This document shows positions 19,853-53,521 of a stretch of DNA of 64,000 nt, piece after piece. The notes beneath the pieces are model-generated. The model ran no database searches. It was not told the origin of the DNA and saw nothing but the letters and a program-made list of their open reading frames with translations. A program made the position numbers and the translations under genes. Source of the DNA: Centroscyllium fabricii (lineage: Eukaryota). Every line of letters starts with the position of its first letter. The first letter of the stretch is position 1. The stretch spans positions 501,456,001 through 501,520,000 of the forward strand of contig JBNRSN020000003.1 in the NCBI GenBank assembly GCA_051313645.2, written 5' to 3'.

Positions 19853-20550
19853 GAGCTATACAAAACGTTAATTAGGCCACAGCTGGAGTACTGTGTGCAG
19901 TTCTGGTCACCACACTATAGGAAAGATGTGATTGCATTGGAGAGGGTGCAGAGGAGATTCACCAGGATGTTACCTGGGCTGGAGCGCTTCAGCTATGAAG
20001 AGAGACTGGACAGGCTGGGGTTGTTTTCCTTGGAGCAGAGAAGGCTGAGGGGGGCCTGATTGAGGTGTACAAAATTATGAGGGGCATAGATAGAGTAGAT
20101 AGAAAGGAACTTTTCCCTTTAGTAGAGGGGTCAATAACCAGGGGGCATAGTTTCAAGGTAAGGGGCAGGAGGTTTAGAGGGGATTTGAGGAAAACCTTTT
20201 CACCAAGAGGGTGGTTGAAATCTGGAACTCACTGCCTGAAAGGGTGGTAGAGGCAGGAACCCTCAACATTCAAGAAGCATTTAGATTAGCACTTGAAACC
20301 CAAGGCTACGGACCAAGTGCTGGAAAATGGGAATAGAATAGACAGGGCTTAATGGCCGGTGTGCACACGATAGGCAAAGGGCCTCTTTCTGTGCTGTATA
20401 ACTCTATGACTCGACTCTATGATTCGGTGATGGTAATGCCATTGAATGTCAAGGGGTGATGGTTAGACTCTCGCTTGTTGGAGATAGTCATTGCCTGGCA
20501 CTTGTGTGGCAGGAATGTTACCTGCCACTTATCAGCTCAAGCATGAACGT

Positions 20551-25726: not shown

Positions 25727-26317
25727 TCATCAGGGGAAGGCACCAGCAGCCAGACTCATGGCACCATGACTGGCTCTGCTGCAAAGAAGGGCGGGAAAAA
25801 GAGTGGCAGGGCTATAGTGATAGGGGACTCAATCGTAAGGGGAATAGATAGGAGTTTCTGTGGCCGCGACCGAGACTCCAGGATGGTATATTGCCTCCCT
25901 GGTGCAAGGGTCAAGGATGTCTCGGAGAGGGTACAGAAAATTCTGGGGGGGGAGGGGGAACAGCCAGTTGTCGTGGTACATGTTGGTACCAACGATGTAG
26001 CCAAAAAAAGGGAGGAGGTCCTACAAGCAGAATTTAGGGAGCTAGGAGCTAAGCTGAAAAGTAGGACCTCGAAGGTAGTAATCTCTGGATTACTACCAGT
26101 GCCACGTGCTAGTCAGAATACAGAGAGCAGGATAGAGAGGCTGAATACGTGGCTTGAGCAGTGGTGTAAGAGGGAGGGTTTTAAATTTTTGAGGCATTGG
26201 AACCAGTTCTGTGGGAGGTGTGACCTATACAAAAGGGACGGTCTACACCTATGCAGAGATGGAACTGATGTTCTCGGGGTAATATTTGCTAAAGCAGTTC
26301 GGGAGCATTTAAACTAG
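25727..26317 (+). pseudogene. CR1 ORF1 C-terminal SGNH/GDSL esterase domain (N-terminus missing)
   Basis: IGDSIVR, PGA, HVGTND and DGLHL motifs of the SGNH fold typical of CR1 ORF1p. Confidence 0.9.
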
Positions 26318-26364
26318 TATGGCAGGGGGGTAGGAACCTATGTAGTGAAAAAGAGGAAAGCAAA

Positions 26365-29268
26365 ATGCAGCCAGAAATAAATGGTAAAAGGGTGAGAAAC
26401 AAAAAACAAAATACACAAAGGGCCAAAGTAATTCATAAAAAGTGTGAGCAAAAAACAAGCCTGAAGGCTTTATACCTTAATGCAAGAAGCATTAGGAACA
26501 AGGTGGATGAATTAGCAGTAGAAATAGAGGTAAACAAATATGATCTAATTGGGATTACGGAAACATGGCTGCAGGATGGGCAAGGCTGGGAACTTAACAT
26601 ACAGGGGTATTCAATATTTAGGAAGGATCGACAAAAAAGAAAGGGAGGAGGGGTAGCATTGCTGGTAAAAGAGGGGATAAATGCAATTGAAAGGAAGGAT
26701 ATTAACTCGGTTAATACGGAATCTATATGGGTAGAACTAAGAAATAGCAAGGGGCGGAAAACGTTAATAGGAGTGGTATATAGGCCTCCAAATAGTAATA
26801 TGGAGGTAGGGGAGGGCATCAAAAGGGAAATTAGAGAAGCATGCAATAAGAGCTCAGCTGTCATCATAGGTGACTTTAACTTGCATATAGATTGGACTAG
26901 CCAAATTAGTAAAAATAACGAGGAGGAGGAATTCCTTGAGTGTTTAAGGGATGGTTATCTGGATCAATATGTCGAGGAACCAACTCGGGATCAGGCTATC
27001 TTAGACTGGGTACTGTGCAATGAGAAGGGACTAATTAGTAATCTTGTTGTACGGGGACCCTTGGGTCAGAGCGATCATAACATGATCGAATTCTCACTCG
27101 AAATGGAGAGCGAAGAAACTGACTCAGAGACTAAGGTCCTGAATTTAAATAAGGGGAATTATGATGCCATGAGACGGGAATTAAGTAAGTCTGATTGGGC
27201 AGCGTTTCTGGGGGGACTGGCGGTGGATAAACAATGGCAAGCATTTAAAGACAGAATGGCAGAATTGCAGAAATTGTTTATACCAATCTGGCATAAAAAG
27301 AAATCTAAAAAGGTGACTCAACCGTGGATAACAGGGGAAATTAGGGACAGCATAAAATCCAAAGAAAGGGCATATAAAATAGCCAAAAAAAGCACCAGAC
27401 CTGAAGATTGGGAACAGTTTAGGATACAACAAAGGAGGGCAAAGGGATTAATCAGGAGGGGAAAAATAGCGTACGAAAGTAAGCTTGCGGCAAACATAAA
27501 AACTAACTCCAAAAGCTTTTACAAGTATATTAAGAGGAAAAGACTGGTGAAATCCAAAGTCGGTCCATTACAGTCAGATTCTGGGGAATATATAATGGGA
27601 AATAAGGAAATGGCAGACCAATTAAATGCATATTTTGGGTCTGTCTTCACAAAGGAAGACACAAAAAACCTCCCTGAGATATCGGGAACCATAGGGACAA
27701 TTGCAAGGGAGGAACTGACAAAAATCAATATCTCTAAGGATATGGTGTTGGGGAAGCTAAAGGGACTAAAGGCTGACAAATCCCCAGGGCCTGATAACAT
27801 GCATCCTAGGGTACTCAAGGAGGTGGCCCTAGAGATAGCAGATGCGTTAAGGATAATTTTCCAGAATTCGATAGACTCGGGAACAGTGCCCATGGATTGG
27901 AGGGTAGCTAACGTTACCCCACTATTTAAAAAGGGGGGTAGGGAAAAAGCGGGCAATTACAGACCTGTAAGCCTTACATCGGTGGTGGGCAAAATACTAG
28001 AGTCCATCATTAAGGATGTAATAGCAGAGCACTTGGCAAATGGGGACAGGATAGGACAGAGTCAACATGGATTTACAAAAGGTAAATCGTGCTTGACGAA
28101 TCTATTGGAATTCTTTGAGGAAGTAACTGGTGAAATAGATGGGGGAGAGCCAGTAGATGTGGTGTACCTGGACTTCCAAAAAGCCTTCGATAAGGTCCCA
28201 CATAAAAGACTAGCATGTAAAATCAAGGCTCATGGGATAAGGGGAAAAGTATTGACGTGGATAGAGAACTGGCTGGCAGATAGAAAACAGAGAGTTGGAA
28301 TAAACGGCTCATTTTCTGAATGGCAGGCAGTAACAAGTGGGGTACCTCAGGGATCTGTCCTGGGTCCCCAGCTGTTCACAATTTATATTAATGACCTAGA
28401 TAAGGGAATCGGATGCAGCATCTCCAAATTTGCAGACGACACTAAACTAGGAGAGGGGGTAGGCTCAGAGGAGGGGATCAGGAAGCTCCAGAGCGATTTG
28501 GACAAATTGGGGGACTGGGCAGATACATGGCAAATGCACTATAATGTGGACAAGTGTGAAGTTATCCACCTTGGGGGCAAAAATGGGAGGGCAAATTATT
28601 ATTTAAATGGCAATAGATTGGGAGATGGGGAAGTACAGAGAGACCTGGGTGTTCTTGTGCACCAGTCATTGAAGGCGAGCATGCAGGTGCAACAGGCGGT
28701 CAGGAAGGCAAATGGTATGCTGGCCTTCATATCAAAAGGGTTAGAATACAGGAACAAGGACACCTTACTACAGCTGTACAGGGCACTGGTGAGACCACAC
28801 CTCGAGTACTGTGTGCAGTTTTGGTCGCCTCATCTGAGGAAGGATGTTCTTGCCATGGAAGGAGTGCAGCGGCGATTCACCAGGCTGATACCAGGAATGG
28901 CAGGAATGACCTATGAGGAGAGACTATGTAGTTTGGGGATGTACACACTGGAGTTTAGAAGATTGAGAGGGGATCTCATAGAAACATATAAAATTCTGAC
29001 AGGCCTGGACAGACTAGATGCAGAAGGAATGTTTCCGATGGCAGGAGAGTACAGAACTAGGGGACACAGTTTAAGGATAAGGGCTAAACCATTTAGGACA
29101 GAGATGAGGAGGAATTTCTTCACCCAGAGAGTGGTGAACCTGTGGAACTCACTACCACAGAGGGCAGTGGACGCCAGCTCATTGAATATATTTAAGAGGG
29201 AATTAGATATATTTCTGCAGGCAAAAGGGGTTAAAGGTTACGGAGAGAAGGCAGGGACGGGATACTGA
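26365..29268 (+). CDS. CR1 ORF2p: APE endonuclease plus reverse transcriptase, uninterrupted (967 aa)
   Basis: YLNARS, GITETW, GDFN, SDHN (APE); KSPGPD, YRPVSLT, YLDFQKAFD, PQGSVLGP, FADD (RT); no stops or frameshifts. Confidence 0.95.
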   Translation: MQPEINGKRVRNKKQNTQRAKVIHKKCEQKTSLKALYLNARSIRNKVDELAVEIEVNKYDLIGITETWLQDGQGWELNIQGYSIFRKDRQKRKGGGVALLVKEGINAIERKDINSVNTESIWVELRNSKGRKTLIGVVYRPPNSNMEVGEGIKREIREACNKSSAVIIGDFNLHIDWTSQISKNNEEEEFLECLRDGYLDQYVEEPTRDQAILDWVLCNEKGLISNLVVRGPLGQSDHNMIEFSLEMESEETDSETKVLNLNKGNYDAMRRELSKSDWAAFLGGLAVDKQWQAFKDRMAELQKLFIPIWHKKKSKKVTQPWITGEIRDSIKSKERAYKIAKKSTRPEDWEQFRIQQRRAKGLIRRGKIAYESKLAANIKTNSKSFYKYIKRKRLVKSKVGPLQSDSGEYIMGNKEMADQLNAYFGSVFTKEDTKNLPEISGTIGTIAREELTKINISKDMVLGKLKGLKADKSPGPDNMHPRVLKEVALEIADALRIIFQNSIDSGTVPMDWRVANVTPLFKKGGREKAGNYRPVSLTSVVGKILESIIKDVIAEHLANGDRIGQSQHGFTKGKSCLTNLLEFFEEVTGEIDGGEPVDVVYLDFQKAFDKVPHKRLACKIKAHGIRGKVLTWIENWLADRKQRVGINGSFSEWQAVTSGVPQGSVLGPQLFTIYINDLDKGIGCSISKFADDTKLGEGVGSEEGIRKLQSDLDKLGDWADTWQMHYNVDKCEVIHLGGKNGRANYYLNGNRLGDGEVQRDLGVLVHQSLKASMQVQQAVRKANGMLAFISKGLEYRNKDTLLQLYRALVRPHLEYCVQFWSPHLRKDVLAMEGVQRRFTRLIPGMAGMTYEERLCSLGMYTLEFRRLRGDLIETYKILTGLDRLDAEGMFPMAGEYRTRGHSLRIRAKPFRTEMRRNFFTQRVVNLWNSLPQRAVDASSLNIFKRELDIFLQAKGVKGYGEKAGTGY

Positions 29269-29765
29269 ACTGAAGGATCAGCCATGATCTCATTGAATGG
29301 CGGAGCAGGCTCGAAGGGCCGAATGGCCTACTCCTGCTCCTATCATCTATGTATCTATGTATCTATGACACGAAAATTGGTGGGGTGGTAAACAGTGAGG
29401 AGGGAAGCCTCAGTCTGCAGACTGATATAGATGGGTTGGTCAGATGGGCGGAACAGTGGCAAATGGAATTTAACCCTGAAAAGTGTGAGGTGATGCATTT
29501 CGGAAGGACTGACAAGGCAAGGGAATACACAATGAATGGTAAGACCCTAGAAAAGACAGAGGATCAGAGAGACCTTGGTGTGCATGTACATAGATCCCTG
29601 AAGGCAGCAGGACAGGTGGATAAGGTGGTTAAAAAGGCATATGGGATACTTGCCTTCATTAGCCGAGGCATAGAATATAAGAGCAGGGAGGTTATGATGG
29701 AGCTGTACAAAACGCTGGTAAGGCCATAGCTGGAGTACTGTGTGCAGTTCTGGTCGCCACACAAT

Positions 29766-30770: not shown

Positions 30771-33219
30771 GGAGGTATGACTGCTGGTCTGCAAACACCC
30801 TTGCATGGTAAGGTCTCCTGTGAACTTTCCTCTCTGCCCGCCTCCATCTGCCAATGACAGCTGCTTGCTCTTGCCTTCTCTGTCATTGTCTCTGTTACAT
30901 GCCCACATACTGCAGCAGGGCAACATCACCATCCAGGGCAGCTCCCATACTTCCAAATGAGCCACAGCCCAGAAGGGGCAAAGTCGTTGTGTAAACTTTT
31001 AACTTTGACAAAAGCACTTGCCAGGCTAAGGTTTTCAGCATCACCAAAGGACTTGCTAAGTTAAACTTTTAACTGTAACAGAAGCAGCAGCTAAGGTAAA
31101 GGTTTACCTGTGATGTGACTGCTTTTGCACTCTCTCTCTCGCTCTCTCTATCTACTGCCTACCTCCAACAAAATGGCTCCCACACCAAAGGCAGGAAGTG
31201 TGCCCCCTTAAATAGCGCCCCAGCGGCCCCAGCTCACGTCAGCTGCGCTCCTGAAAGCGGGCGCGGGCAGCGCTGGGCATGGGGTAGGCGCGCGCTGCTC
31301 AATTTCTGGCGCAGTCCGCAGGGCGGGTGTCGCACCGGGAAGTCACGACGATATCGGCAAGGATTCAGGCGCGCCAAGTAGCGCGCGCTAACAGTTAGCG
31401 CCGCTTGATGAATTTGGGGCACGGTGGAAAATTTTTAGCGCCCGGCGCTAAAACCTCTCGTGCCGGTTTTCGGGTGCTAATCGGTCGGTGCTAGAGTGCC
31501 AGTTTTTCGGCTTATGACTCTCAATGAGCAACTTGACTTCCCCCAGCTCAGTCACAGCAACAGTCTTATGGCAAACAGTCTCACAATAAGGAGACTAAAC
31601 ATCGTAGCACAAAACAAAATCATTGTAACTGTGATGCAAAGTGCATGAGAATGGTTAATAGTGCTGGGGAACATTGCCATATTTCTTGTTGATTTTCTGT
31701 TTTGGAATTCAATTGGTCAAGAAATTGGATAAAAGTTTTCGTATAGGCCTTTTAAGGACTTGAAGATGGGATGTTAGTCTTTTGACATCTATTCATTAAA
31801 GGATTCAGGGAGCCACTTAAAAATGTCACCTCTGGTTCCTAAACATCCTACAATGTACCAAGGGGAAATCTTAAGTGTGTAAGAAATATGGCTGTGCAGT
31901 TATTCAGAAGGTAGCAGAGCATAAAAAGGCATTATATTCTTTAAGATAGATCTCCTCAAACTATACTGTCAAGAAGATTTACAATTGGCAAGGACATTTC
32001 CTCCCTATATTGAGATGAATTTGGTTCAGGTCAGCGGTATAAGATAGTTGACAAAAACAATCTGACAATTTGAGGATGTCTGATATGACATTGTAGCCAC
32101 CTTCTGAAAACCAGACTTATTTACATTCAGATAGCCAATTTACTGAAGTGTATTCCACAATCACAAGTTACTGTTGCCATTCACATAGATATTGAATGTG
32201 TAAAGTGAATGCTATTTTAATAACCCGAGAAATTAAACAACGCCGTACAAACTTTTTTTTCCTTCCGAAACTGCAAATCTTAAATCAGAAGAAATTGGTG
32301 ATTTTGAAGTTACTGGCTGAGAAGAGAAAAGTTAATTGAATGCAATGAGTTTAGAGGAAAATGCTTGGTTCACTTTTAACCACCTATTGACAGTAGAAGT
32401 TAATGCAGTCCTGTGTGTGATAGAGATTATGGTCTTGATCTTCCCTGAGGTGCGGGGAATTGGCGGGTTTCCGGCGGGTCAGGTTTCCCACACGAATCCT
32501 AAAGGGTCTGGGAGCCCCATGCAATTTTGGCTCAATTGGCCAATTGATTTCCAGCATGTGGGAACCCTTGGCAAGTGAGTATTTCCAATCAGAAAGTCGC
32601 ACAGTATGATGTCATCGTTGCTGGTGCATTTCAGGTCCACAGCAAGCCTTGCTTCTGCTGCCCACTGCCAACCTTTTGCCCTTTCATGCCAGAGGGACCT
32701 GGAGGCAGAATGACCATCGAGAGACCTAGGTCTGCTTCCAGGTTTGATGATGTGGCCCTGCAAGCTTCATTTGAGGGAGCGAGAGCTCATAAAGAGGTGC
32801 TCTTCCCTTCTTCAGGAAGGAAGGAGTATCCCCAGCAGGCTGTGTGGATCCAGGTGGCAGAGGAGGGTATCTCATTATCAATACCCTGCAGAACCTGGAT
32901 TCAGTGCAGGAAGAGAATTCATGACCTTCTTGTGGTAACCGTATATATACTGTAATTACCACCGTAATATTGTTGCCAATATTATCAGTATGTATAGCGG
33001 TTGGGTGCATGATGTGTTGCGACACTGTCGTGGGGCCAGGTCAGCCACACCTCTAACTCCTCCCTCAGGTGAGGCCCTTATAGGTGGGGACTGACCGGAC
33101 CCCGTTCATTCTGTACCTGTTGTTCGTTCGGAGTATAGCTCCGTTGTAAGTCAATAAAAGCCTCTAGTTAAGGTCACTACTCGTCTTTAGTTTTATTAAG
33201 ATTATTGACGATGCGTCAA

Positions 33220-33232
33220 TTTTATTGACTTA
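33220..33232 (+). promoter_or_regulatory. PBS-position sequence complementary to the element's own LTR poly(A)-signal segment (element C)
   Basis: TTTTATTGACTTA is the reverse complement of TAAGTCAATAAAA at 33147-33159. Confidence 0.8.
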
Positions 33233-33658
33233 AAAATTTGAAATGGAGAGCGGCGCTGTAAAACCAGAGAAGCTGGATATCAGTCCACAGGACCCAGCCG
33301 CCGCCACTACCTTCGAACACTGGTTCGGTCTCCTGGAGGCCTACATGGAAGCCGCAGGGGCTGAGACCGATGGGAACAAGCTACAGGTTCTCCGGTCCAG
33401 GATCTCCAGCCGAGTATTCTCCCTCATCCGGGACGCCAAAACTTACTCAGCGGCGGTGGAAAAACTGAGGAAATGCTATGAGCGCCCGGTCCACTCTGTC
33501 TACGCCAGACATGTGCTCGCGACCAGACCACAACTACCGAGTGAGTCTAACGAACAGTTCGAGCAGGCACTCCAAGCCCTGGTACGGGTCTGTGGCTGCC
33601 AACCACGGACGGCAGAGGAGGAGGCGAATCTCCTCGTCCGAGACGCCTATGAAACGGA

Positions 33659-34278
33659 TTCCGGTTCCGGTTCTGGCAGGACGGCCACTATTGGGCGGCT
33701 GCACCTCTACTCCTCTGCGTGGAGTCAATTCGTTCTGGTCGACCGCCATTTGACGTCGGCGGCGCCGGGTGAGAGCCGGTGGGATGCGGGGCACAGTTCA
33801 GCCCCCAGGACGCTGCATCAGTTCGGCCTCGGTCCAGAGTTCGGACTTCCGGGGAGTCGGGACGGCCTTGGCTTGGCGTTCCGGGGAGCCTGCGTCGAGC
33901 GCCTGGAGTTCGGAGCTCAGGGGAGCTGGGATGGGCACTCGGAGAGGGCTAGGCCTCAGGCCTCAGGACGCTGTGCCCGGAGTTCGGAGCTCCGTGGATT
34001 CGGGGAGTCGGACAGAGAGTGGCCACGGAAGGAACAGTGGCAGAGCGAGTTGACTGGGCGAGAGAGGACAATTTACCAACGGTTGAGTGGCCAGAGCAGG
34101 AACGGGATCCACGAGGATGGCGCCGGAGAATGGCTGACGTCTTGCGGGCTCGTTCGTGCCGGGCAGCTTAATTGTTGCGCGGTTGTTGCACGGTGTGTCG
34201 GGTAGCAGTAAGCTTTTCACTGTTTAAATTGTGTTTTAAATATGTGACAATAAAATTTAACTTGAACTTCAACTTGAA
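33659..34278 (+). mobile_element. Non-coding retroposon with a Rex1-like 3' tail, inserted in C gag
   Basis: Absent from the homologous site in D (~42505-42530); begins (TTCCGG)n; ends AAGCTTTTCACTG...GTGACAATAAAA plus (CTTGAA)n, like the tail at 2101-2127. Confidence 0.75.
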
Positions 34279-34808
34279 GGTGCGTAGAGGCCCGCCAGCG
34301 GCTGCTAGAAAAGGACTCCCAAACTCTAGAGGAGGCGATCTCTATCTCTAACTCTGTGGAAGGCGCACGCCGCAAGCTGCAGACGTACGGCGGCATAAAC
34401 CCACAGGTCTACGACGCGTGGGCAGCACCACAACGGGTCCAGGCCTGGGCAGCACCACAACGGGTCGAGACCCCCACGATGGCAGCGGCAGCTGCGAAGA
34501 TGCCGGCGGACAAGAAGTGCTACTTCTGCGGCCAGGGATTACACCCACGGGCGAGATGCCCAGCGAAGACCGCGACCTGCGAGAGGTGCTCTAAGAAGGG
34601 ACACTATGCAAAGGCCTGCAGATCAGCCCCGGCGCCCAGCTCCAGGTACAACAGCGCAGCCTGCGAAAGCTCCACCAGGTCTCAGGTAAGCTGCAATTGC
34701 AGCGCGATCCAGCGACGGTCCGGGGGTAGAGAAAAAGCGCCCCCATCTCCCACCCTGATGCGGCAAAGGCCGGCTGCACCCACGGCACGCCAAACTCAGC
34801 CACGGCCG

Positions 34809-35123
34809 GCCATGCGCGACCCCCCAACGCCGGCATCCCGCCCAGCGCGGCTCGCTGTGTGCGAATCACGGGCACCGCCAACCCAACCGCCGTGGCTCGC
34901 TGCGTGCGAATCACGGGCACCGCCAACCAAGCCACCGCGGACCGCTGCGTGCGAACTACGGGCGCCGCCACCGCGCCCACAGCGGTCAGCCGCGTGTGAA
35001 CCACGGGCGCCGCCATCTTGTCTCCAACGGCCCGCCATGTGCGACCCCCCGGCGCCGCCATCTTGTCTCCAGAGGCCAGCCATGTGCGAACCACGGGCGC
35101 CGCCATCTTGTGTTCGGCCCCAA
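34809..35123 (+). repeat. 45-bp (15-aa) coding tandem repeat in the C Gag-protease linker, about 7 units
   Basis: A(A/M)C(E/D)xRAPP repeats in ORF 34356-35600. Confidence 0.85.
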
Positions 35124-38100
35124 CCAGCGGGGGGCCCCCACACACACACACACACTTCGGCTTCAGCCATCCCAAAAGTCGATCAGGCTAGGCCGCACAC
35201 CCTATCTAATTCAATGATGGCGATCAAAGTTAACGGCCATAACACTAACTGCCTGTCCGACACCGGAAGCACAGAGAGCTTTATTCACCCTGATACAGCG
35301 CGGCGCTACGGACTGCAGATCCTGCCCACGAGCTACGAAGTCTCCCTTGCTTCACAGTCCCACACCGCGGACGTCACCGGATACTGCTCCGTCACGCTCA
35401 CAGTTAAGGGCTGCATGTACCGCAACTTTAAGTTGTACATCCTCAGACAACTGTGCGCCCCAGCCTTACTGGGACTGGATTTCCAGTGCCACCTTAAGAG
35501 CGTGACAATGGAGTTCGGCGGGACCCTGCCCCCCCTCACCATCAGTAGCCGGGACAGTCCCTTCCCAAGCGGAGCCCGGCCTGCGGCCTCTCCACCCTGA
35601 AAATCGACACCCCCTCACTGTTCGCCAATCTCGACCCCAACTGCAAGCCCATTGCTACCAAGGGTCGGCGGTACAGTGTGGGGGATCGGACATTTATCAG
35701 GTCGGAGGTCGGGCGTATGCTGAAGGAGGGGATAATTGAAGCCAGCACCAGCCCCTGGCGGGCCCAGGTTGTAGTGGTGAAGACTGGCGAGAAACAGCGG
35801 CTGGTTATCGATTACAGCCAGACTATTAACCGCTACACCGGGCTCGATGCCTACCCCCTCCCCCGCATCTCGGACATGGTTAACCAGATCGCCCAATACA
35901 AGGTGTTCTCCACAATCGACCTTAAGTCGGCGTATCACCAACTCCCGATCCGGAAAGCCGACCGCCCGTACACCGCCTTTGAGGCGAACGGTCGGCTCTA
36001 CCACTTCCTCCGGGTCCCCTTCGGCGTGACCAACGGAGTGTCGGTATTCCAGCGGGAGATGGACCGCATGGTTGACCAGAACGGGTTGCAGGCCACCTTC
36101 CCCTACCTGGACAACGTGACCATCTGCGGCCATGACCAGCAGGACCACGATGCCAATCTGGCCAAATTCCTTGACACGGCGAAACGGCTTGATCTAACGT
36201 ATAACAAGGACAAGTGTGTCTTTAATACAGATCGGCTCGCCATCCTCGGATACGTGGTGGAGAACGGGGTCCTCGGCCCCGACCCACAGCGTATGCGCCC
36301 ATTACAGGAACTGCCCCTTCCGCACAACCCAAAAGCCCTGAGGAGATGTCTAGGATTTTTCTCCTATTACGCACAATGGGTTCCCCAGTTCGCGGATAAG
36401 GCTAGACCGCTCCTCAAGGCTGCCGCCTTCCCCCTCTCGGTAGAAGCCGAAACGGCATTCGCCCGGATAAAGGAAGACATTATCAAGGCGACCATGCACG
36501 CCGTTGATGAATCCATCCCGTTCCAGGTGGAGAGTGACGCTTCGGACTTTGCCCTTGCCGCCACCCTAAATCAGGCAGGCAGGCCCGTAGCGTTTTTCTC
36601 CCGCACCCTTCAGGGACCCGAAACTCACCACTCCGCAGTGGAAAAGGAGGCCCAGGCCATCGTGGAAGCCGTGCGCTATTGGCGTCATTACCTGGCTGGT
36701 AAGCGTTTTACCCTGCTCACCGACCAACGGTCGGTCGCGTTTATGTTTAATAATAAACAAAAGGGTAAAATCAAGAATGATAAGATCCTGCGGTGGCGGA
36801 TCAAGCTCTCGACTTACGAGTATGACATTCTTTACCGACCAGGCAAACTCAATGAACCCCCGGACGCACTGTCCAGGGGAAAGTGCGGCAGTGCCCAGCT
36901 AGACCGGCTGAAGGAACTCCACGACCGCCTCTGCCACCCGGGTGTCACCAGACTTGCCCACTTCGTTAGATCCCGTAGCCTCCCCTACTCCATCACGGAG
37001 ATCAAGGCTATGACCCGAGAGTGCCCTGTTTGCGCCGAGTGCAAACCTCAATTTTTCAGGCCAGACATGGCGCATCTCATTAAGGCCACCCGCCCCTTTG
37101 AATGTCTAAGCGTGGACTTCAAAGGCCCCCTCCTCACCACCAACCGCAACTCGTACTTCCTCACGGTCGTAGACGAGTTCTCCCGCTTCCCCTTTGCCTT
37201 CCCCTGCCCAGATATGACGAGCGCAATGGTGATCAAACACTTCACCACGCTGTTCGCCATTTTCGGTCTCCCCAGCTACATTCATAGCGACCAGGGGTCA
37301 TCGTTCATGAGCGATGAACTGCGCCAGTTTCTGCTCCAGAAAGGGGTTGCCTCGAGCAGAATGACCAGTTACAACCCCCGGGGGAACAGCCAGGTAGAAA
37401 GGGAAAATGGGATCATCTGGAAGGCGGTCACCCTGGCTCTGAAGTCCAGAGGCCTTCCAGTGTCCCATTGGCAGGCAGTTCTCCCAGACGCGCTGCACTC
37501 GATATGCTCTCTGCTGTGTACGGCCACCAACGCCACCCCTCATGATTTAATGTTTTCCTTCCCCAGGAAGTCGACTTCGGGGACTGCTCTTCCACCGTGG
37601 CTCATGACGCCGGGGCCGGTCTTCCTTAGGAAACACGTCCGCGGCCACAAGACCGACCCCCTGGTGGACAAGGTGCAGCTCCTGCACGCCAACCTGCAGT
37701 ACGCCTACGTGCAGTTCCCGGACGGGCGCGAGGACACCGTCTCCATCAGGGACCTAGCGCCCACCGGGAGCACCGTAGCAGAACCCCTGGCCGGGCAGCA
37801 GCCCGCCCAGCCACTATATTTCGGCCACCCACAGCACCTACATTGGCCGCCATCACCAGGTTATCCAGAGCCCCCGCTGTGGCCAGCTGAGGACCAAGAT
37901 TCGGATGGCTCAGACCAACCACCACCACCATCACCTAAAGTTTCGGCACCAGCGCCGCCGTCACCACCACCGGACCCAACGCCGCCGATGCTGCAGGGAA
38001 CGGATCACGCAGAACTTCTGCCAGAGCCCCGGCGGTCCTCCAGATAGACGCAACCGCCGGATAAACTGATAGTGAACTGCTCTGTCCATTCACACCGCCG

Positions 38101-38672
38101 GACTAAATTTTCAAAGAAGGGGTGAATGTGGTAACCGTATATATACTGTAATTACCACCGTAATATTGTTGCCAATATTATCAGTATGTATGGCGGTCGG
38201 GTGCATGATGTGTTGCGACACTGTCGTGGGGCCAGGTCAGCCACACCTCTAACTCCTCCCTCAGGTGAGGCCCTTATAGGTGGGGACTGACCGGGCCCCG
38301 TTCATTCTGTACCTGTTGTTCGTTCGGAGTATAGCTCCATTGTAAGTCAATAAAAGCCTCTATTTAAGGTCACTACTCTGACGTATCGTCAATTCTCTCA
38401 ATAAAGACTTAGACGAGTAGTTACCTTAACTACGGGCTTTTATTAACTAACTTTGGAGCTATACTCCGAACGAACATCCAGAACAGAATGAGGGAGCCCG
38501 GCCAGTCCTCACCTATAAAGGGCCTCACCTGGGGGAGGAGTTAGAGGTGTGGCTGACCTGGCTCCACACCAGTGTTGCAAACATGATAACAGAACAGCCA
38601 ATATTGGCGACAATATTGCAGTGGTAAAACTATGTATAATAACGGTTATCACATTCACCCCTTCTTGAAAAT

Positions 38673-41600
38673 TTAAGTCCAGCGGGGTGAATGTACAGAG
38701 CAGTTCATTATAAGTTTGTCCGGCAGTCGCGTCTGTCTGGAGGACCGCCGGGGCTCTGGCAGAAGTTCATTATGTTCCGTCCTGCTCGGGTCCGGTGGCG
38801 CTGGTGCCGAAACTTCGGACGCTGGTGGCCTCGGTTGATCTGAGCCATCGGAATGGTGGTCGTGGGCCGGCCACGGCTGGGGCTCTGGATACCTCGGAGG
38901 CCACTGTAGATGCAGGGGGTGTTCAAAATACCGTGGCTGGGCGGACTGCTGCCCGACCAGTGGCTCTGCTGTGGTGCACCCGGCGGGCGCTAGGTCCCAG
39001 ATGGAGACGGTGTCCTCGCGCCCATCCGGGAACTGTACGTAGGCGTATTGGGGATTTGCATGCAGGAGCTGCACCTTGTCCACCAGGGGGTCGGTCTTGT
39101 GGCCACGGACGTGCTTTCTAAGGAAGACCGGCCCCGGTGTCGTGAGCCATGGAGGAAGAGCTGTCCCCGAAGTCGACTTCCTGGGAAAGGAAAACATCAA
39201 GTCATGAGGGGTGGCGTTAGTGGCCGTACATAAAAGAGAGCGTATCGAATGCAGCGCGTCTGGGAGGACTGCCTGCCAATGGGCCACTGGAAGGCCTCTG
39301 GACTTCAGAGCCAGGATGACCGCCTTCCAGATGATCCCATTCTCCCTTTCTACCTGGCCGTTCCCCCGGGGGTTATAAGTGGTCGTTCTGCTCGAGGCAA
39401 CCCGTTTCTGGAGCAGAAACTGACGCAGTTCGTCGCTCATGAACGACGACCCCCGGTCGCTATGGATGTAGCTGGGGAGACCGAAAATGGTGAACAGCGT
39501 GGTGAGGTGTTTTATCACCGTTGCGCTCGTCATATCTGGGCAGGGGAAGGCGAAGGGGAAGCGGGAGAACTCATCTACGACCGTGAGGAAGTATGAGTTG
39601 TGGTCGGTGGTGGGGAGGGGGCCTTTGAAGTCCACGCTTAGACGTTCAAAGGGGCGGGTGGCCTTAATGAGGTGCGCCGTGTCTGGCCGGAAAAATTGGG
39701 GTTTGCACTCGGCGCAGACAGGGCACTCTCGGGTCATAGCCTTGATCTCCGTGATGGAGTAGGGGAGGCTATGGGATCTAACGAAGTGGGCGAGTCTGGT
39801 GACACCCGGGTGACAGAGGCGATCGTGGAGATCCTTCAGCCGGTCTAGCTGGGCACTGGCGCACGTTCCCCTGGACAGTGCGTCCGGGGGTTCATTGAGT
39901 TTACTTGGTCGGTAAAGAATGTCATACTCGTAAGTCGAGAGCTCGATCTGCCACCGCAGGATCTTATCATTCTTGATCTTACCCTTCTGTTTATTATTAA
40001 ACATAAACGCCACCGACCATTGGTCAGTGAGAAGGGTAAAACGCTTACCGGCCAGGTAATGACGCCAGTAGCGCACGGCCTCCACGATGGCCTGGGCCTC
40101 CTTTTCCACTGCAGAGTGGCGAATTTCGGGTCCCTGTAAGGTGCGGGAGAAAAACGCTACGGGCCTGCCTGCCTGATTCAGGGTGGCGGCAAGGGCAAAG
40201 TCCGAAGCGTCACTCTCCACCTGGAAAGGAATGGATTCATCAACGGCGTGCATGGTCGCCTTGATAATATCTTCCTTTATCCGGGCGAATGCCGTTTGGG
40301 CTTCTACCGAGAGGGGGAAGACGGCAGCCTTGAGGAGTGGTCTAGCCTTGTCCGCGAACTGTGGGACCCATTGTGCGTAATAGGAGAAAAATCCTAGGCA
40401 TCTCCTCAAGGCTTTGGGGTTGTGAGGTAGGGGCAGTTCTTGTAGGGGGCGCATACGCTGTGGGTCGGGGCCGAGGACCCCATTCTCCACCACATATTCG
40501 AGGATGGCGAGCCGGTCTGTATTAAAGACACATTTGTCCTTGTTATACGTAAGGTCCAGCTTTTCCGCCGTGTCAAGGAATTTGGCCAGATTGGCATCGT
40601 GGTCCTGCTGGTCATGGCCGCAGATGGTCACGTTGTCCAGGTAAGGGAAGGTGGCCCGCAACCCTTCTGGTCAACCATGCGGTCCATCTCCCGCTGGAAT
40701 ACCGACACTCCATTGGTCACGCCGAAGGGGACCCGGAGGAAGTGGTAGAGCCGACCGTTCGCCTCGAAGGCGGTGTACGGGCAGTCGGCTTTCCGGATCG
40801 GGAGTTGGTGATACGCCGACTTAAGGTCGATCGTGGAGAACACCTTATATTGGGCGATCTGGTGGACCATGTCCGAGATGTGGGGGAGTGGGTAGGCGTC
40901 GAGCCTGGTGTAGCGGTTAATAGTCTGGCTGTAGTCAATAACCAGCCGCTGTTTCTCGCCAGTCTTCACCACTACTACCTGGGCCTGCCAGGGGCTGGTG
41001 CTGGCTTCAATTATCCCCTCCTTCAGCATACGCCCGACCTCCGACCTGATAAACGTGCGATCCCCCACACTGTACTGCCGACTCTTAGTAGCAATAGGCT
41101 TGCAGTTGGGGTCGAGGTTGGCGAACAGTGAAGGGGGGTCGATTTTCAGGGTGGAGAGGCCGCAGGCCGGGCTCCGCTTTGGGAAGGGACTGTCCCGGCT
41201 ACTGACGGTGAGGGGGGGCAAGGTCCCGCCGAACTCCATTGTCACGCTCTTGAGGTGGCACTGGAAATCCAGACCTAGTAAGGCTGGGGCACACAACTGC
41301 TTGAGGGTGTACAACTTAAAGTTACGGTACACACAACCCTTGACTGTGAGCGTGACGGAGCAGTAGCCGGTGACGTCCGCGGTGTGGGACTGTGAAGCAA
41401 GGGAGACTTGGTAGCGCGTGGGCAGGATCTGCAGTCCGTAGCGCTGCGCTGTATCAGGGTGGATAAAGCTCTCTGTGCTTCCAGTGTCGAACAGGCAATT
41501 AGTAACATGGCCGTTAATTTTGATCGGCATGATCGAGTTCGATAGGTTGTGTGGCCTAGCCTGGTCAACTTTAGGTATGGCTGAGGCCGAAGTGTGCCTT

Positions 41601-42931
41601 TGTGTGTGGGGGCCCCTTGCTGGTTGGGGCTGTACACAAGATGGCGGCGCCCGTGGCTCGCACATGGCGGGGCGCTGGAGACAAGATGGCAGCGCCGAGG
41701 GGTCGCACATGGCGGGCCGCTGGAGACAAGGTGGAGGCGCCGAGGGGTCGCAAATGGTGGGCCGCTGGAGACAAGATGGCGGCGCCCGTGGTTCGCACGC
41801 GGCTGACCGCTGTGAGCACGCTGGTGGTGCCCGTGGTTCGCACGCAGCGGGCCGCGGTGGCTGGGTTGGCGGTGCCCGTGGTTCGCACGCAGTGAGCCGC
41901 GGTGGTTGGGTTGGCGGTGCCCGTGATTCGCACGCAGCGGGCCGCGCTGGGTGTGCTGCTGGCATTGGGGGGTCGCGCATGGCCGGCCGTGGCTGAGCTT
42001 GGCGTGCCGTGGGTGCAGCCGGCCTTTGCCGCATCAGGGTGGGAGATGGGGGCGCTTTCCTTCTACCCCCGGACCGTCGCTGGATCGCGCTGCTATTGCA
42101 GCTTACCTGAGGCCTGGCGGAGCTTTCACAGGCTGCGCTGTTGTACCTGGAGTTGGGCGCTGCTGGTGCTGATCTGCAGGCCTTCGCGTAGTGTCCCTTT
42201 TTGGAGCATCTCTCACAGGTCGCGGTCCTCGCTGGGCATCTCGCTCGTGGATGCAGTCCCTGACTGCAGAAGTAACACCGTTTGTCTGCCTTTGTGGCCA
42301 TCGCAGCCATCGTGGGGGTCTCGACCCGTTGTGGTGCTGCCCAGGCCTGGGCCCGTTGTGGCGTGGCCTACGCGTCATAGACCTGCGGGTTTGTGCCGCT
42401 GTACGCCTGCAGCTTGTTGCGTGCCCCTTCTACAGAGTTTGATATAGAGATCGCCTCCTCTAAGGTCAAAGAGTCTTTCTCAAGCAGCCGCTGGCGGGCT
42501 TCAACGCACCTCAGGCCTGTTACGTAGGCATCACGGACGAGGAGATTCGCCTCTTCCTCTGCTGTCCGTGCTTGGCAGCCACAGACCCGTACCAGGGCTT
42601 GGAGTGCTTGTTCAAATTGTTCATTTGTCTCACCCGGTAGTTGCGGTCTGGTCGCGAGCACATGTCTGGCGTAGACCGAGTGGACCGGGCGCTCGTAGCA
42701 TTTCCGCAGTTTCTCCACTGCCGCTGGGTATGTTTTGGCGTCTCGGATGAGGGAGAATACTCGGCTGGAGATCCTAGACTGGAGAACTTGCAGTTTGTTC
42801 CCGTCGGTTGTAGCCTTGGCGGCGTCCATATAGTCCTCCAGGAGACCGAACCAGTGTTCGAACGTAGTGGCGGCGGCTGGGTCCTGTGGACTGGTGTCCA
42901 GCTTCTCTGGCTTTACCGCACCGCTCTCCAT
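38673..42931 (-). pseudogene. gag-pol of element D
   Basis: ORFs 42368-42931 (TGG>TAG stop relative to C), 40628-42310 and 38673-40661 (frameshift near 40660); YLDN motif. Confidence 0.92.
41625..41985 (-). repeat. 45-bp coding tandem repeat in the D Gag-protease linker, about 8 units
   Basis: ACEPRAPP-type repeats in ORF 40628-42310. Confidence 0.85.
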
Positions 42932-42943
42932 TTCAAATTTTTC

Positions 42944-42956
42944 TTAGTTAATAAAA
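42944..42956 (-). promoter_or_regulatory. Self-complementary PBS-position sequence (element D)
   Basis: Sense TTTTATTAACTAA pairs with LTR sense TTAGTTAATAAAA (43017-43029). Confidence 0.8.
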
Positions 42957-45577
42957 TTGACGTATCGTCAATTCTCTCAATAAAGACTTAGACGAGTAGT
43001 TACCTTAACTACGGGCTTTTATTAACTAACTTTGGAGCTATACTCCGAACGAACATCCAGAACAGAATGAGGGAGCCCGGAGAGTCCTCACCTATAAAGG
43101 GCCTCACCTGGGGGAGGAGTTAGAGGTGTGGCTGACCTGGCTCCACGACAGTGTTGCAAACATGATAACAGAACAGCCAATATTGGCGACAATATTGCAG
43201 TGGTAAAACTATGTATAATAACGGTTACCACATACTCGTCTTTAGTTTAATTAAGATTATTGACGATACGTCACTTCTGCACACTGGAAAAGTGAGTATG
43301 AATTTCCCATCACCCTCAATCTGATCCCCATTGCCTTTCCTCACCAGCACTCAGCTTCAGCAATCTCTCCCTCCACATCCCACTTCACACTCACATCCAT
43401 GCACCCTTACCCATCCCCTCTCTCTCTATGCTCACATTCACATAACTATTACACCATGCAGCCCTCACACTCCCTATCACTCTGATGCTTTGAACACAAC
43501 TGACAACACACAGGGAGGGCCCTTGGTCTTGTCACCTCATTCCATCTTTGGCTCCTTCTAAGTATCGATGCTATGGAATCTCTACACTCACTCCTTCATT
43601 CTCACTCAACCTCCACTTGTCTCCCTCATTGCAGGAAAAGAGCGCTCACAATAAGTGAGAAAGAGTGAGGACAGGAGGAGGGCCACCCCCAGTAGCCCAC
43701 CTCGCCCTTTGGGAGGAGGCGGTCCTGGAGATTGCAGGAGTGGAGGAAGAAGCGCAAGTGGGGGAACGGACAGACGGGTGCATCGCAGCAAGCTGGTGAC
43801 AGATTAGTTCTTCATCTCTCTCATTGACATTGCATGAGTCGCTGATAATGATTCTGAAGTTCTAACAGATGGACTTATGATCATCTGCAATATGCAAGAT
43901 GCATGTAACCTTTGCATCACATCTCTGACTCTTCCCTTTACTCCCCCACAGGATCATCACAAGCAGCCATCCCCACTAGACAGGAGGACCAGCCTGAGCA
44001 TCCAGACTCCTCAGAGGAAGCTGCAACCTCTGAGGGTGCAGCATCAGCAGAATTCAGCGCACCCAGCACCAGCGCAGACACTCACACCTCGGGGGGACCT
44101 TCGGGACATAGAATAGTGTTGTCACCTGGTGTATCATCGCTCACAAGTGAGCATCAGCAGATGGTGGAGACATTGGCAGCAGTGAAGAGTCCTAGCTGGA
44201 GGGCCCAGGACTCTGCCAGCTCATCTCAGCTGCATGTCGACCCTCTGCCTCTGGGTCCATCCATAAGATCGGCAGTGCTGGAACTCCAGGAACAGATGCA
44301 GGAGTGGGTGGGTGAGCAGCAGCCTGGCGCTCCTGTTGCTGCTGCTGTTGTTCCTGGTTCTGCTGGTGCCGCGACTGGTGCGGGGGCTCATCTAATGCTC
44401 AGAAAGGAAGGAAATAAATGGCTTCCATGCTTCTGACATATGCCTCCGCTGAGGAAGCGCTGAGTGAATGTGCCAAGAGGGGTTTCTCAGGAGTTCACAC
44501 TGGAGATGTGTGTGAGGCTCCAACCTACCACAGGTGTGCTTAAGACTTCTAAAAGTTGCCCCAATCCTGAAACAAAAAGGTCCTGCCACCTGCATATGAT
44601 GGCTGATTCAATCTCATAATTTATGACTGACTTGCAGCTAAGAGTCAGCAAGCCGAATGTGTCCCCACCAGGTTTCACAGACGGTGTTTCCAGCTGCCGG
44701 GTTTTGTGTGGGAAAAGGCTGAAAATTGCAAGGGCCCCCTAAAATGGCATTATAGATGCCAATCAATGGTGATTAAGGTGCCTAAACACCATTCCCACCG
44801 GTCGTGGGCGGGACTGCAGCGGGCCGACCAGACACGGCAGGGGGAAAATCGCGATGTGTGGGGAATCCAGTGGGAGGAGTCTCGACCCTCCGTTTCTGCT
44901 ATTTTGTCTCCCCGGCCGCCGAAAAGCCCGCCTGATGGCTCAAGGAAAATTAAGGCCTATGTGTAACTGTTAAAATGCATTGTTGGAGTTCACATGATAA
45001 AATTCAGCATGCTCAGTGGAAATCAATGCAAAAAGACAAACTTTTCTTTGGGGGCCTTGACAGAAATCAAAAGAAACTGACCAGAACTCCAGTAAGGTAA
45101 TATCAGTCACTGGAAGCTTAAAGCACTGAAGGTTTAAGGGGCACAATTACTCCCACCCCACCCTCCACCATTCCAATAGCAATAATTAGATTGTTTCCAC
45201 AATGTTCAATCCCTCATTTCAAATCATCTGCTGTCTAGTTTGATATATATAAGAATGATATCAGAGAGGGTCCAGACCCTCGTCGACATGACCTAGCAAG
45301 TGAGGAAGTAAGATTGAAGAAACTGAAGAGAGCCTTCCAATCAGCAATCAGACAATGAAAATATTTAGGTAAATGAGATGGTTTCAACTATCTTTAGAGG
45401 AATCTGAACTAAATTATATATAAAAAGCTACAAAACCTTCCGAGCCTGTTGCAGCAGGCACTCACTCAAGTTGGCAGTCAAATACCAGTGTTGTCCATGC
45501 TACTTGTGTGCCCCAAAGCATTTTGGGTTTGCCACATTATGTTGTCTCACTTCATTATTCTTGACTGGATGCAACAA

Positions 45578-49400: not shown

Positions 49401-51919
49401 AAGCACAGGACCACGATACTATGTGGACCACACTATCCATAGCTGGGGTCCAATTAAAAATGGAACTGGACACAGGGTCAGCCCTGACGGTAATCAACGA
49501 AAAGTCTTTCGCGCATGTGGCACTGCAAGAGACTAAAGTAATACTGAAAACCTATATGGAACAGAAAGTCTACCCAAAAGGAAGAATCAGAGTGACCATT
49601 ATATATAACGGTAAGAAGACCACAGGACTGTATTTGTACGTCTTACAGGAAGGTGGACCACCATTGCTCGGGCGTGAGTGGATTAGGAAACTCCAGTTTA
49701 ACTGGGCATCCATTCACGCACTAAAAGTTAAAGAAACACGTGACACAAGAATGGCACCGGACCGGTTGACCAGGATACTGGAAAGCACCCCTGAAGTCTT
49801 CCAACTGGGGCTGGGGAAATTGAACGACATCAAAGCGACCATCACAATCGCTGAAGGGGCCACACCAAAATGTTTTATCCGACCAGCAGTAGAAGCAGAG
49901 CTGGATAGCCTGGAACAACTGGGCGTGTTGACAAAAGTGGACTGGAGCGAATGGGCCACGCCCATTGTCCCAGTTATGAAGAAAGCCACTCACAGCACCC
50001 CAGGGGAGCCAAGGAAGGTTCGCATCTGTGGTGACTTCAAGGTCACAATTAACCCAGTGCTACAAACAGCACAGTATCTGCTGCCCAGGATAGACATCTT
50101 TGCCTCGTTAGCGGGCGGTAAAAAATTCTCAAAGATAGATCTCGCGCAGGCGTACCTGCAAATGGAGGTCGAGGAGGAGTCAAGGAGTCTCCTCACAATC
50201 AACACACACAGAGGCCTTTACAGGTACAACCGCCTGGTCTTTGGTGTGGTGTGCGCCCCGGCAATTTGGCAACGAACCATGGAGCAGGTCCTGCAGGGAA
50301 TCCCGGGGACACAGTGTTACCTGGATGACATCTTAGTCATGGGCAACAATGACACGGAACATCTCTCAACATGGGCAACAATGACACGGAACATCTCTCA
50401 AAATTGGAACAAGTGCTTCTCCGATTGCGAAAATATGGCCTCAGGGCCAATAATGATAAATGTGAGTTCTTCAGGGACCAGATAGCGTACTGTGGTCATA
50501 TCATTGACCAGGAGGGACTCCACAAATCCCCAGAGAAGATTGACACAGTTATGAACGCCCCGGCACCAGAAAATGTGTCTCAGCTACAGTCTTTCCTAGG
50601 ATTGATAAACTATTAGCACAAGTTCCTTCCGAACTTGTCCACCATTTTACACCCCATGAACACATTGCTAAAAACAGGGGTCACATGGGAATGGAACAAA
50701 GGGTGCAGGAAAGCCTTCCTGGAGAGCAAACGGTTGCTCACATCCAAGAAAGTGCTGGCACATTTCGACCCATCGGTGCCTATCAAACTGGCATGTGATG
50801 CGTCGCCATACGGAATAGGGATGGTGTTGTCACACCAGTTCTCAGGGGGGCAGACGGCCTATTGCATTCGCTTCGAGGTCATTAACCTCCGCCGAAAAGA
50901 ATTACGCCCAAATAGACAGAGAAGCCCTCAGTCTGGTATGGGGAGTTAAAAAATTCAACCACTACCTACACGGCCAGAGGTTCACATTAATTACGGACCA
51001 CCAACCACTAGTGTCCATTTTCAACCCTAAGAAGGGTGTCCCCCTGATGACTGCTCAGCGCCTGCAGAGATGGTCCTTGTTCCTGGGAGCTCACCAGTAT
51101 CAGATACAGTACAAGGGCACAAAACAGCATGCCAATGCTGACAGTCTCTCACGGCTGCCACTACCAACTGTGGGCAAAGACCCTACGATAGACCCGGTGG
51201 AGCTATATCATGCCTCCATCGTAAAAACACTGCCGGTGACAAACAAAAATATTGAGAAGGAAACCAGGAATGATCCTACATTGTCCAGAGCCTACGACAT
51301 GACGGTAAAGGGAAGGCCAGCCCAGGGCGATTCTCAATTGCCACACTACTCTGCAAGAAGGGAACAGTTGTCCACCTGCAGAGGCACCCTGATGTGTGGA
51401 TCCCGAGTGGTGATTCCAGTGAAACTGCAGAAACAGGTGCTAAAAGAACTCCACGAGGGACACATGGGGTGCGTCAAAATGAAAAGCCTGGCCAGGGCCT
51501 ATGTATGGTGGCCAGGCATCAATAACCAAATAGAGGAATTGACTAAGGACTGCCAAGGATGCCAATTAGTACAGAAGGCACCACCCCAGGCTCCACTACA
51601 TCCGTGGGAATGGCCCTCCACACCTTGGCAAAGGATTCATGTGGACTTCACGGGTCCATTCATGGATGCGATGTTCCTGGTCGTGGTGGATGTGGTAATA
51701 CAGAACAGCTTCTAGCTTGGAGTTTTTGCTTACATCACTTCTGGGGACCTGTGAACTTTGGATGATGTCACTTCCTGTAATTAGCCCAGTATAAATACTG
51801 GGCTACTCAGTATGATTTAGTAAGAGGCATGGTGCAGACCTCTTTTGTGTGTATCACAGTTATAAGTTGATTAAAGCTTACCTTAGGTTTATATCGTGTA
51901 AGTTTCATTCTTACAACAA

Positions 51920-51931
51920 TTTAATCAACTT
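51920..51931 (+). promoter_or_regulatory. Self-complementary PBS-position sequence (element F)
   Basis: TTTAATCAACTT is the reverse complement of AAGTTGATTAAA at 51864-51875 (ATTAAA hexamer). Confidence 0.8.
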
Positions 51932-53394
51932 TGCAAAACTTCTCACTCAACTCGAACGTTTGGACAAAACTCGGAGCTGAGGATCCAGGGAACCGCCCAG
52001 CATGGAGAACCTCCTTAGACCGACTCGTCTCGATTTGGACCCAAACACCTCAGCAGCTGATAAAGTATGGAAACACTGGTATCACTCTTTCGAAAATGTT
52101 CTTGTGTATTGTGAAGCTGATGATGACATGAAGCTCAAGTTACTTATCAACTATGTCACCCCAAGGGTATATGAATGTGTGGATCATTGGACTAATTTTG
52201 ATGAGGCAATCCGGACACTTCAGAGACTATATACTAAGACACCTAATGAGGTCTATGCTAGACATCTACTAGCTACAGCCCGACAAGGGCCAGAGGAATC
52301 AATTGATAAATTCCTTCATGAGCTTCGCAGGCTTAGCATGAATTGTAACTTTCAGGCGGCCTCAACTGAACTGTACCATGAAGAGCTGATTCGTGATGCC
52401 TTCATCTATGGGCTTGCCTCCCCATTTATTCGCCAGCGTTTACTCGAAAGTAAGACACTGGAACTACAAAAAGCTTATGACATGGCTTGTTCTCTGGATT
52501 TGGCAAAAAAAAATGCAGACCTTTATGAGGTACCCAGACCTCGAACTGCTGCTTTAACCACAACCAGACAACTTAAGCGGCCACAGGTGCACTCTATTAG
52601 GGAGGACTTTATTCCTGATGATCAATCTGATGACTTCAGTGATGAAGAAGATGCTGACCCCACTCTGGCAGCCTCTTGGCGATCTAAGAAATGCTTCTTT
52701 TGTGGTGATGAGTTTCATCCTAGGAAATTCTGCCCTGCTCGCAATGCGATTTGCAGTCATTGTGACAAAAAGGGTCATTTTGCGAAGGTTTGCCTATCAC
52801 GAGCCTCTACGAGGGCTTATCGAGCTCAGTCCTATCGAACTGCCCCAATTAGGGCCTATCAAGATATTCCGGCTAAGACTTATCATGCTTCCTCTCGAGG
52901 TTTTTCCCGAAGAAGCACACCTAGAGTTTCAGCCACTCTTTGTGCAACAACATCAATTACAGCTGCTTGTCCTCCAAATCTATTCCATGCAGCTGTGAAG
53001 GCATCAGTTGCTGGACATACTTTAGATGCCTTAATTGACTCAGGCAGCTCTGATAGTTTTATTAGGGAACAGGTTGTTACAAAGTTAAAGTTACATGTTT
53101 TCCCATCCAACCAGGCAATTGCGATGGCTCAGTCGTCGCTCAACACCAGAATCTCCGGCTTTTGTATTGTTGAAATGTCACTTAATGGCCACAGGTATCC
53201 CTCCACCCGGCTTTCGGTGCTCAAGGACCGGTGTAGTGATCTTATCTTAGGGCTGGACTTTCAAAAGCAGCATAAGCAGCTCACTATTGAGTTCGGTGGA
53301 TCCAAACCCGGACTCACTATTTCTAATATCCTGCCTCAATTACCGTTCTGTGCGTTGTCAGCGGCTTCACTGGATGAACCCTCACTATTTACCA

Positions 53395-53521
53395 TAATGC
53401 GGAGGTGCCGGTGTTGGACTGGGGTGGACAAATGCAAAAAGTCACACAACACCAGGTTTAAAGTCCAACGTTTTATTTTAAATCACAAGCTTTCGGAGCT
53501 TTTGCCCCTTCGTCAGGTGAA
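53395..53521 (-). mobile_element. Penelope-like pLTR fragment inserted in F pol
   Basis: 11-bp TSD ACTATTTACCA (53384-53394 / 53522-53532); homologous to 30680-30770. Confidence 0.85.
53483..53521 (-). ncRNA. Minimal type-I hammerhead ribozyme motif (Penelope type)
   Basis: UCAC-CUGACGA-A-GGGGC-AAAA-GCUCC-GAAA-GC-UU-GUGA: stem I, catalytic boxes, stem II, palindromic AGCU stem III and an NUH site. Confidence 0.75.

Follow-up and report, generated by a model that had tools for sequence, protein, structure and literature searches.

Natural YLDN reverse transcriptase motif in Ty3/Gypsy elements of Centroscyllium fabricii and their animal relatives

LTR elements of the window and their classification

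The window analysed in this study, i.e. the whole 64,000-nt stretch of Centroscyllium fabricii DNA, contains three LTR retrotransposons (C, D and F) whose reverse transcriptases (RTs) carry YLDN in motif C. Element C is located on the forward strand. Its 5′ LTR (288 nt; 32931–33218) is followed by a fragmented gag and protease region (33234–35600) and by an open pol frame of 832 aa (35549–38047), which encodes RT, RNase H and integrase. The catalytic Asp of RT motif A is kept in this frame (35918–35920), and the catalytic residues of RNase H (D330, E367, D392, D439) and integrase (D523, D581, E617) are all present. A polypurine tract lies just before the 3′ LTR, which is split into a first part (38127–38378) and the last 36 nt (43238–43273), after which comes the 5-bp target duplication of C. 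The interrupting element D (38379–43232, reverse strand; LTRs at 42958–43232 and 38379–38653) is nested in the opposite orientation to C and flanked by a 5-bp target duplication; owing to a frame change right before its RT motif, the motif and the first half of the RT are in different frames. Element F (51691–56367, forward strand; LTRs at 51691–51918 and 56140–56367) has a perfect 5-bp target duplication and a pol region with one frame change and one stop. All three elements are bounded by TG..CA LTRs, possess a polypurine tract and are flanked by 5-bp target duplications. C (34846–35111) and D (41636–41946) contain, in the region that separates the Gag knuckle from the protease, in-frame 45-bp tandem repeats of variable number.

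The sequence FPYLDN is found at positions 36104–36115 (+) in C, 40632–40643 (−) in D and 54016–54027 (+) in F, with Asn encoded by AAC in C and D and by AAT in F, exactly as the first-pass annotation had recorded. HMMER aligned the YLDN of the window elements onto the YLDD of Ty3 RT. The remaining three LTR-element RTs of the window with a readable motif carry YLDD (6044, 17451 and 50318); a YIDN at 54621 is a chance match to YxDN, lying out of frame. The LTRs differ at 7 of 288 positions in C (five in the first 252 bases and two in the last 36), 5 of 275 in D and 6 of 228 in F, i.e. by 1.8–2.6%, which bears out the divergence of about 2–3% given previously. Stops or frame changes interrupt all three window copies, which are therefore dead members of an active family, and the question of activity concerns the family rather than these particular copies.

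Other repeats were also identified in the window. Two Gypsy copies with a DUF7041-type gag carry internal deletions: in one of them (20550–23499, reverse strand) gag continues in frame into RNase H and neither protease nor RT is present, while the other (4940–8464, forward strand) is devoid of the protease and the start of the RT. These may be non-autonomous forms. Element B (15423–19853) is inserted in a LINE fragment, whose flanks match an endonuclease-RT LINE at 26293–29729, and a satellite-like array with periods of 19, 37 and 56 bp is located at ~61000–61855.

The domain order revealed by Pfam (gag, protease, RT, RNase H, integrase) is that of Ty3/Gypsy elements (Metaviridae). The solved structure nearest in sequence to the RT of C is that of Ty3 (phmmer, E 4.7e-49), and a structure model with a pLDDT of 76, which confirms the fold and has a disordered C-terminus, gave 4ol8 as its top Foldseek match (E 2.5e-28). 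The YLDN motif departs from the YxDD that is canonical for Ty3/Gypsy, which is no argument against membership, because close sisters carry YLDD. Pfam found the Gypsy-type RVT_1, RT_RNaseH and rve in the window elements instead of Pao-type families, and their Gag has one CCHC-type knuckle region, as opposed to the triple Cys-His of BEL/Pao.

The elements probably represent the Cigr-1 clade, since the protein XP_026689427.2 of Ciona intestinalis (YLDD) falls inside their clade. The gag-pol of the clade forms a single frame with a median of 1,214 aa (170 proteins). This would fit Cigr-1, with its single frame of 3,630 bp (~1,210 aa) in an element of ~4.2 kb. In the accessible parts of two publications (PMC6238403, PMC8556966), the hosts given for the Cigr-1 clade are tunicates, molluscs and annelids only, and neither YxDN nor the primer site is mentioned for it. 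The term YLDN is likewise absent from the searchable supplements of PMC6238403, and YxDN from the available text of PMC3601003.

Copy number and selection in the host genome

Copies in the 7.2-Gb genome were counted by exact matching of a 34-nt pattern that covers the C/D motif; this yielded 50,871 matches for YLDN versus 57 for YLDD. If all of the former were full length, they would amount to ~250 Mb, or 3.5% of the genome. Control A-to-G changes at two neighbouring positions gave 86 matches for Asn to Ser and 194 for the first Asp to Gly, a change expected to be lethal; the YLDD copies do not exceed either number and are thus background mutations. Ten YLDD copies that were examined have their nearest neighbours at a distance of 1.5–7%, in different subfamilies, and three of the ten are nearest to another YLDD copy. 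For the F family, counted with the form of the sister copies (F itself carries a private change), the exact pattern gave 1,661 YLDN and a single Asp form, and all 30 of 30 copies retrieved with a query downstream of the motif, which excluded the motif, carry YLDN. A third YLDN family, with a DNA identity to C of only 71%, contains many open frames of 1,274 aa (L211–L240). At least three families of this genome carry Asn as an inherited state, and the view of YLDN as a lineage trait rather than decay holds. The first-pass annotation had also raised the possibility that intact members carry YLDD. Unbroken members carry YLDN: among 150 scored C-type matches, 12 sit in open frames of 1,386–1,442 aa; 84 of the 150 share complete identity with C over 120 aa. 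Two of the L211–L240 loci belong to a possible fourth YLDN family.

An origin of the motif by CpG deamination of GAC-GAC, or by assembly error, has practically no probability, although deamination may explain why the swap arises often. The codon preceding Asn is GAC in C, D and F, and would have formed a CpG if the next codon had been GAY. However, 99.9% of the copies carry YLDN, and CpG decay is excluded by the GAT that precedes the Asn codon in many F-family copies, in the third family and in 21 of 45 metagenome YxDN motifs. Only marginally less improbable is a restoration of Asp, in which the Asn codon is read or edited back. A-to-I editing of AAC reads as GAC, and deamidation of Asn, here in the folded enzyme, is established chemistry. 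Edited RNA that had been packaged would nevertheless be copied into new insertions, and Asp copies stand at background. Deamidation is disfavoured by Val or Ile as the next residue, and the motif is followed by one of these in 173 of the 182 YxDN rows compared below.

In order to trace selection, 40 copies picked by their order of position, and not by intactness (L141–L180), were compared with C and D over the RT–RNase H region. Pairwise dN/dS decreased over rising dS bins from 0.52 through 0.37, 0.24 and 0.19 to 0.15 (43, 27, 104, 241 and 445 pairs, respectively; dS under 0.06 in the lowest bin, 0.25 or more in the highest). For C versus D, it equals 0.12 (0.022/0.193). Variants common to at least five copies are 110 silent versus 24 replacing, whereas private variants (123 silent, 276 replacing) show a neutral pattern. 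The predominance of silent changes among shared variants, together with the falling dN/dS, indicates that the copying lineages needed their RT while Asn was fixed. Thirty-one LTR pairs were initially called, of which five were false (internal repeats) and were removed before the statistics; the true pairs, present in the stretch for 26 of the 40 copies, have a median difference of 2.1% (range 0.4–7.1%), and 13 of the 26 are flanked by a perfect 5-bp duplication by automatic end calling.

These data also bear on the idea that the YLDN RT is dead and that a YxDD element supplies the enzyme for copying these families in trans, which we consider very unlikely. Such help would agree with the block of transposition caused by D211N in Ty1 and with the inactivation of retroviral RT by a change of either Asp, as given in the accessible text of PMC554778, and other YLDD Gypsy families do exist in the window. 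Yet the YLDD elements A and B of the window have a TGG-type primer binding site (PBS) and an RT identity of about 33%, dN/dS over RT–RNase H between subfamilies is 0.12–0.19, YLDD copies are at background, and intact single open frames with Asn are found in many hosts. In a search of the genome with one query, a YLDD relative (150 scored matches), all 30 of the 30 examined loci, the third family being represented among them, proved to be YLDN, and none of them represents a YLDD helper family of the clade. The earlier proposal of a naturally functional YLDN RT gains strong genomic support from purifying selection and from this search. The evidence argues strongly that the RT of these families works in nature; we infer its activity from copy number and selection.

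Exchange of Asp and Asn within the clade and the primer site

Among the best 120 of 1,304 homologs of the C RT, 100 have xxDN, 18 xxDD and two another motif; the best 120 of 981 homologs of the F RT, ten of which are common to the earlier lists, comprise 105 xxDN, 11 xxDD and four with an unread motif. Clustering at 50% gave 150 representatives. The 106 with at least 40% identity are divided almost evenly (52 Asn, 51 Asp, 3 other), and all 42 below 40%, a small and skewed outgroup that is no survey of Gypsy, have Asp; the remaining two did not cover the motif. The named hosts of Asn forms are sharks, rays, corals, sea anemones, Hydra, shrimps, a mantis shrimp and a copepod, the closest named homologs of the C RT being those of catsharks and rays, while Asp forms are named from Ciona, Cydia and Trichuris. 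The nearest relatives of the F family are one protein at 91% and cnidarian and other elements at 73–77%, with C at only about 60%; horizontal transfer of this family is possible.

In a FastTree phylogeny with the motif column masked, 263 rows formed one clade against 17 outgroup rows, with at least 23 Asp/Asn changes. A second tree was built from 85 RT–RNase H rows, thinned at 66% identity with deliberate retention of close Asp/Asn pairs. It places Asp in the deep branches, and contains a crown rich in Asn, into which Asp rows are nested; the minimum is 14 changes, 10 of which are forced by well-supported branches, and the hypothesis that all Asn rows form one clade is rejected (p-AU 1.5e-42). 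Among the nested Asp rows are real YLDD families, in which all readable cluster members agree (12/12, 12/12, 9/9 and 5/5), and one of these families is the sister of the F family. The elements belong to a Ty3/Gypsy clade of old standing in animals, where Asp and Asn have replaced each other at least 10–14 times. The repeated returns suggest that Asp may be the better residue in some settings.

The YxDN rows keep the Asp of motif A (179 of 182), the four RNase H acids and the DDE of integrase. A search for a compensating residue over 686 pol columns, based on 23 independent Asp/Asn pairs, yielded no column that passes (best p 0.03, uncorrected; the test is a weak one). Raw associations with Asn, e.g. 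those of Gly163 (175 of 181 Asn rows versus 55 of 81 Asp rows) and Thr191 (170 of 182 versus 52 of 81), are largely due to kinship.

The primer site of C, D and F has no TGG. It is a stretch of 12–13 nt, located one base after the LTR, that pairs with a stretch 43–59 nt inside the LTR end, and changes in one partner are matched by changes in the other, both from C to D and among subfamilies. The PBS of C (33220–33232) pairs with a 13-nt stretch (33147–33159) ending on an AATAAA signal; that of D (42944–42956, reverse strand) has a 13-nt complement at 43017–43029, with a matched change relative to C, and that of F (51920–51931) a 12-nt complement at 51864–51875. No tRNA genes were found in the window. 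Within the genome, 21 of the 26 true LTR pairs keep at least 11 paired bases, and the primer-site letters vary among the C/D subfamilies together with the LTR complement. In most cases, the last bases of the complement form a hexamer resembling AATAAA/ATTAAA, after which come GCC and a small hairpin (33147–33218 in the window; L051–L123); the 5′ poly(A) signal would also be masked when the complement pairs with the PBS.

The clade is predicted to be self-priming, in a manner resembling Tf1/Tf2/Tj1 and the Tf1/sushi group, whose PBS is likewise complementary to their own LTR and not to a tRNA (PMC4600332, accessible part). In Tf1 the complement is the 5′ end of the transcript, according to the same source. 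The complements of C, D and F lie 67–74 nt after a TATA-like box and thus, unlike in Tf1, are probably not the first bases of the transcript. Moreover, the Tf1/sushi chromoviruses carry a chromodomain on their integrase, while the Pfam scan detected none here.

Enough upstream DNA was available for 46 of 80 metagenome loci. A fold-back of 11–19 nt, counted if its length was not reached in 30 shuffles, is present in 22 of 33 YxDN, 3 of 11 xxDD and 1 of 2 other loci. The YLDD loci concerned are L066 (16 nt), L123 (15 nt) and L113 (16 nt), and L064, with a 12-nt match in its 3′ end, is a probable fourth. A fold-back is lacking in 20 loci; in most of these the 5′ LTR is not readable, and none of them showed a TGG-type PBS at an LTR end. 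The lower share among Asp loci may be caused by truncation or may be a real difference.

The first-pass annotation had linked YLDN to the tRNA-less PBS and proposed that their co-occurrence be scored on an RT phylogeny. This co-occurrence stands as a description of the clade, and fails as a coupling of the two traits, given the repeated swaps inside the clade and the Asp loci that retain the site (three of 11 and a probable fourth). A stricter version, in which Asn is mechanistically tied to tRNA-free self-priming because the polymerase site was re-tuned so that RNase H cuts the RNA-RNA fold-back and frees the primer before extension, is improbable. It would agree with the confinement of Asn to the fold-back clade (0 of the 42 representatives under 40% identity), with the two-thirds of YxDN loci that have the 11–19-nt fold-back (22/33), and with the location of suppressors of Ty1 D211N in RNase H (PMC2148107, accessible text). 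On the other hand, L066, L123, L113 and L064 keep the fold-back with YLDD, the deep branches are Asp, at least 10 swaps of the residue took place, none of the RNase H columns follows the presence of Asn, and YVDN occurs in nematode BEL elements, which belong to another superfamily. Asn is therefore not required for the fold-back, as shown by the YLDD members that have this structure and by the Asp of the deep branches; the fold-back is a separate trait, of greater age and common to the clade as a whole.

Precedents and a possible mode of catalysis with Asn

The closest experimental parallels are Ty1 D211N and the matching Ty3 mutants, with the same substitution at the same position as in YLDN; these are laboratory mutants, unlike the natural, massively amplified families described here. 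According to the accessible text of PMC2148107, Ty1 D211N keeps polymerase activity in vitro, with a 223-fold lower kpol and a preference for Mn, and loses transposition, 5–10% of which is regained through RNase H suppressors; the equivalent Ty3 mutants are cited there as keeping polymerase activity. The earlier background statement that the Ty1 and Ty3 mutants keep polymerase activity is thus accurate for Ty1 in vitro, and omits the fall in kpol and the loss of transposition. It also lacked natural YVDN, which was already known from nematode BEL/Pao.

In the parts of the literature that were accessible (10.1101/2021.11.23.469668; PMC554778), nematode Belpaoviridae (Cer7–Cer12, Tas, Atlas) are described as having YVDN, intact frames and identical LTRs, and the activity of natural YVDN was 'to be determined' as of 2005 (PMC554778). 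These LTR elements belong to another superfamily than the present Gypsy clade, which also differs from them in (i) the absence of env, (ii) its presence in many animal phyla, (iii) more than 50,000 copies in one genome and (iv) Asp/Asn sister families. Natural, working polymerases with Asn in place of the second Asp of motif C are further known from birnaviruses and Mononegavirales (PMC4634563, accessible text); these are RNA-dependent RNA polymerases, not reverse transcriptases. Our literature search, which covered sources other than Repbase Reports and most subscription journals, retrieved no report of YxDN in Gypsy elements. The present clade is the first Gypsy case of natural YxDN found, and the genomic evidence for its activity is far stronger than for the nematode precedent.

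We consider it very probable that the families are autonomous Ty3/Gypsy elements, whose own RT works with Asn in the third active-site place. In such an enzyme, as reasoned from the two-metal mechanism, the Asp of motif A and the first Asp of motif C would hold the metals, and the amide of Asn would fill the weaker third position. This position could be made near neutral by the clade-wide RT background, e.g. TNGV in motif B in place of the VNAP of Ty3; the residue two places after the motif, mostly Thr, is a further candidate feature, and the role of each is conjectural. If it resembles Ty1 D211N, such an RT may have a lower rate or a preference for Mn, to a degree that did not stop amplification. 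The complete loss of transposition in Ty1 D211N, and its need for RNase H suppressors, lead one to expect a compensating change, and none passed the 23-pair test. Since Ty1 D211N fails in vivo yet these families succeed, a permissive background is implied, and with such a background no single compensating change would be needed per swap.

A less likely variant, to which we assign a small though not trivial probability, is that Asn confers an advantage instead of only being tolerated: a site with two carboxylates, adjusted in concert with RNase H, would time the primer-making cut or limit pyrophosphorolysis. Asn would then have helped the family to reach its several percent of the 7.2-Gb genome, and the clade would represent a natural switch between two catalytic modes of RT.

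With autonomous elements and an Asn-tolerant RT as the preferred reading, there is strong genomic evidence that natural YxDN in Gypsy represents a long-doubted RT variant at work, in tens of thousands of copies, and the clade offers the strongest genomic answer found to the question raised in 2005 (PMC554778, accessible text). YxDD is a common test for a live RT, and pipelines relying on it would call these copies dead, even though they are among the most successful elements of the genome. The clade also contains natural Asp/Asn sister enzymes that are ~73% identical, with which the role of the third carboxylate and the failure of Ty1 D211N in vivo become directly testable.
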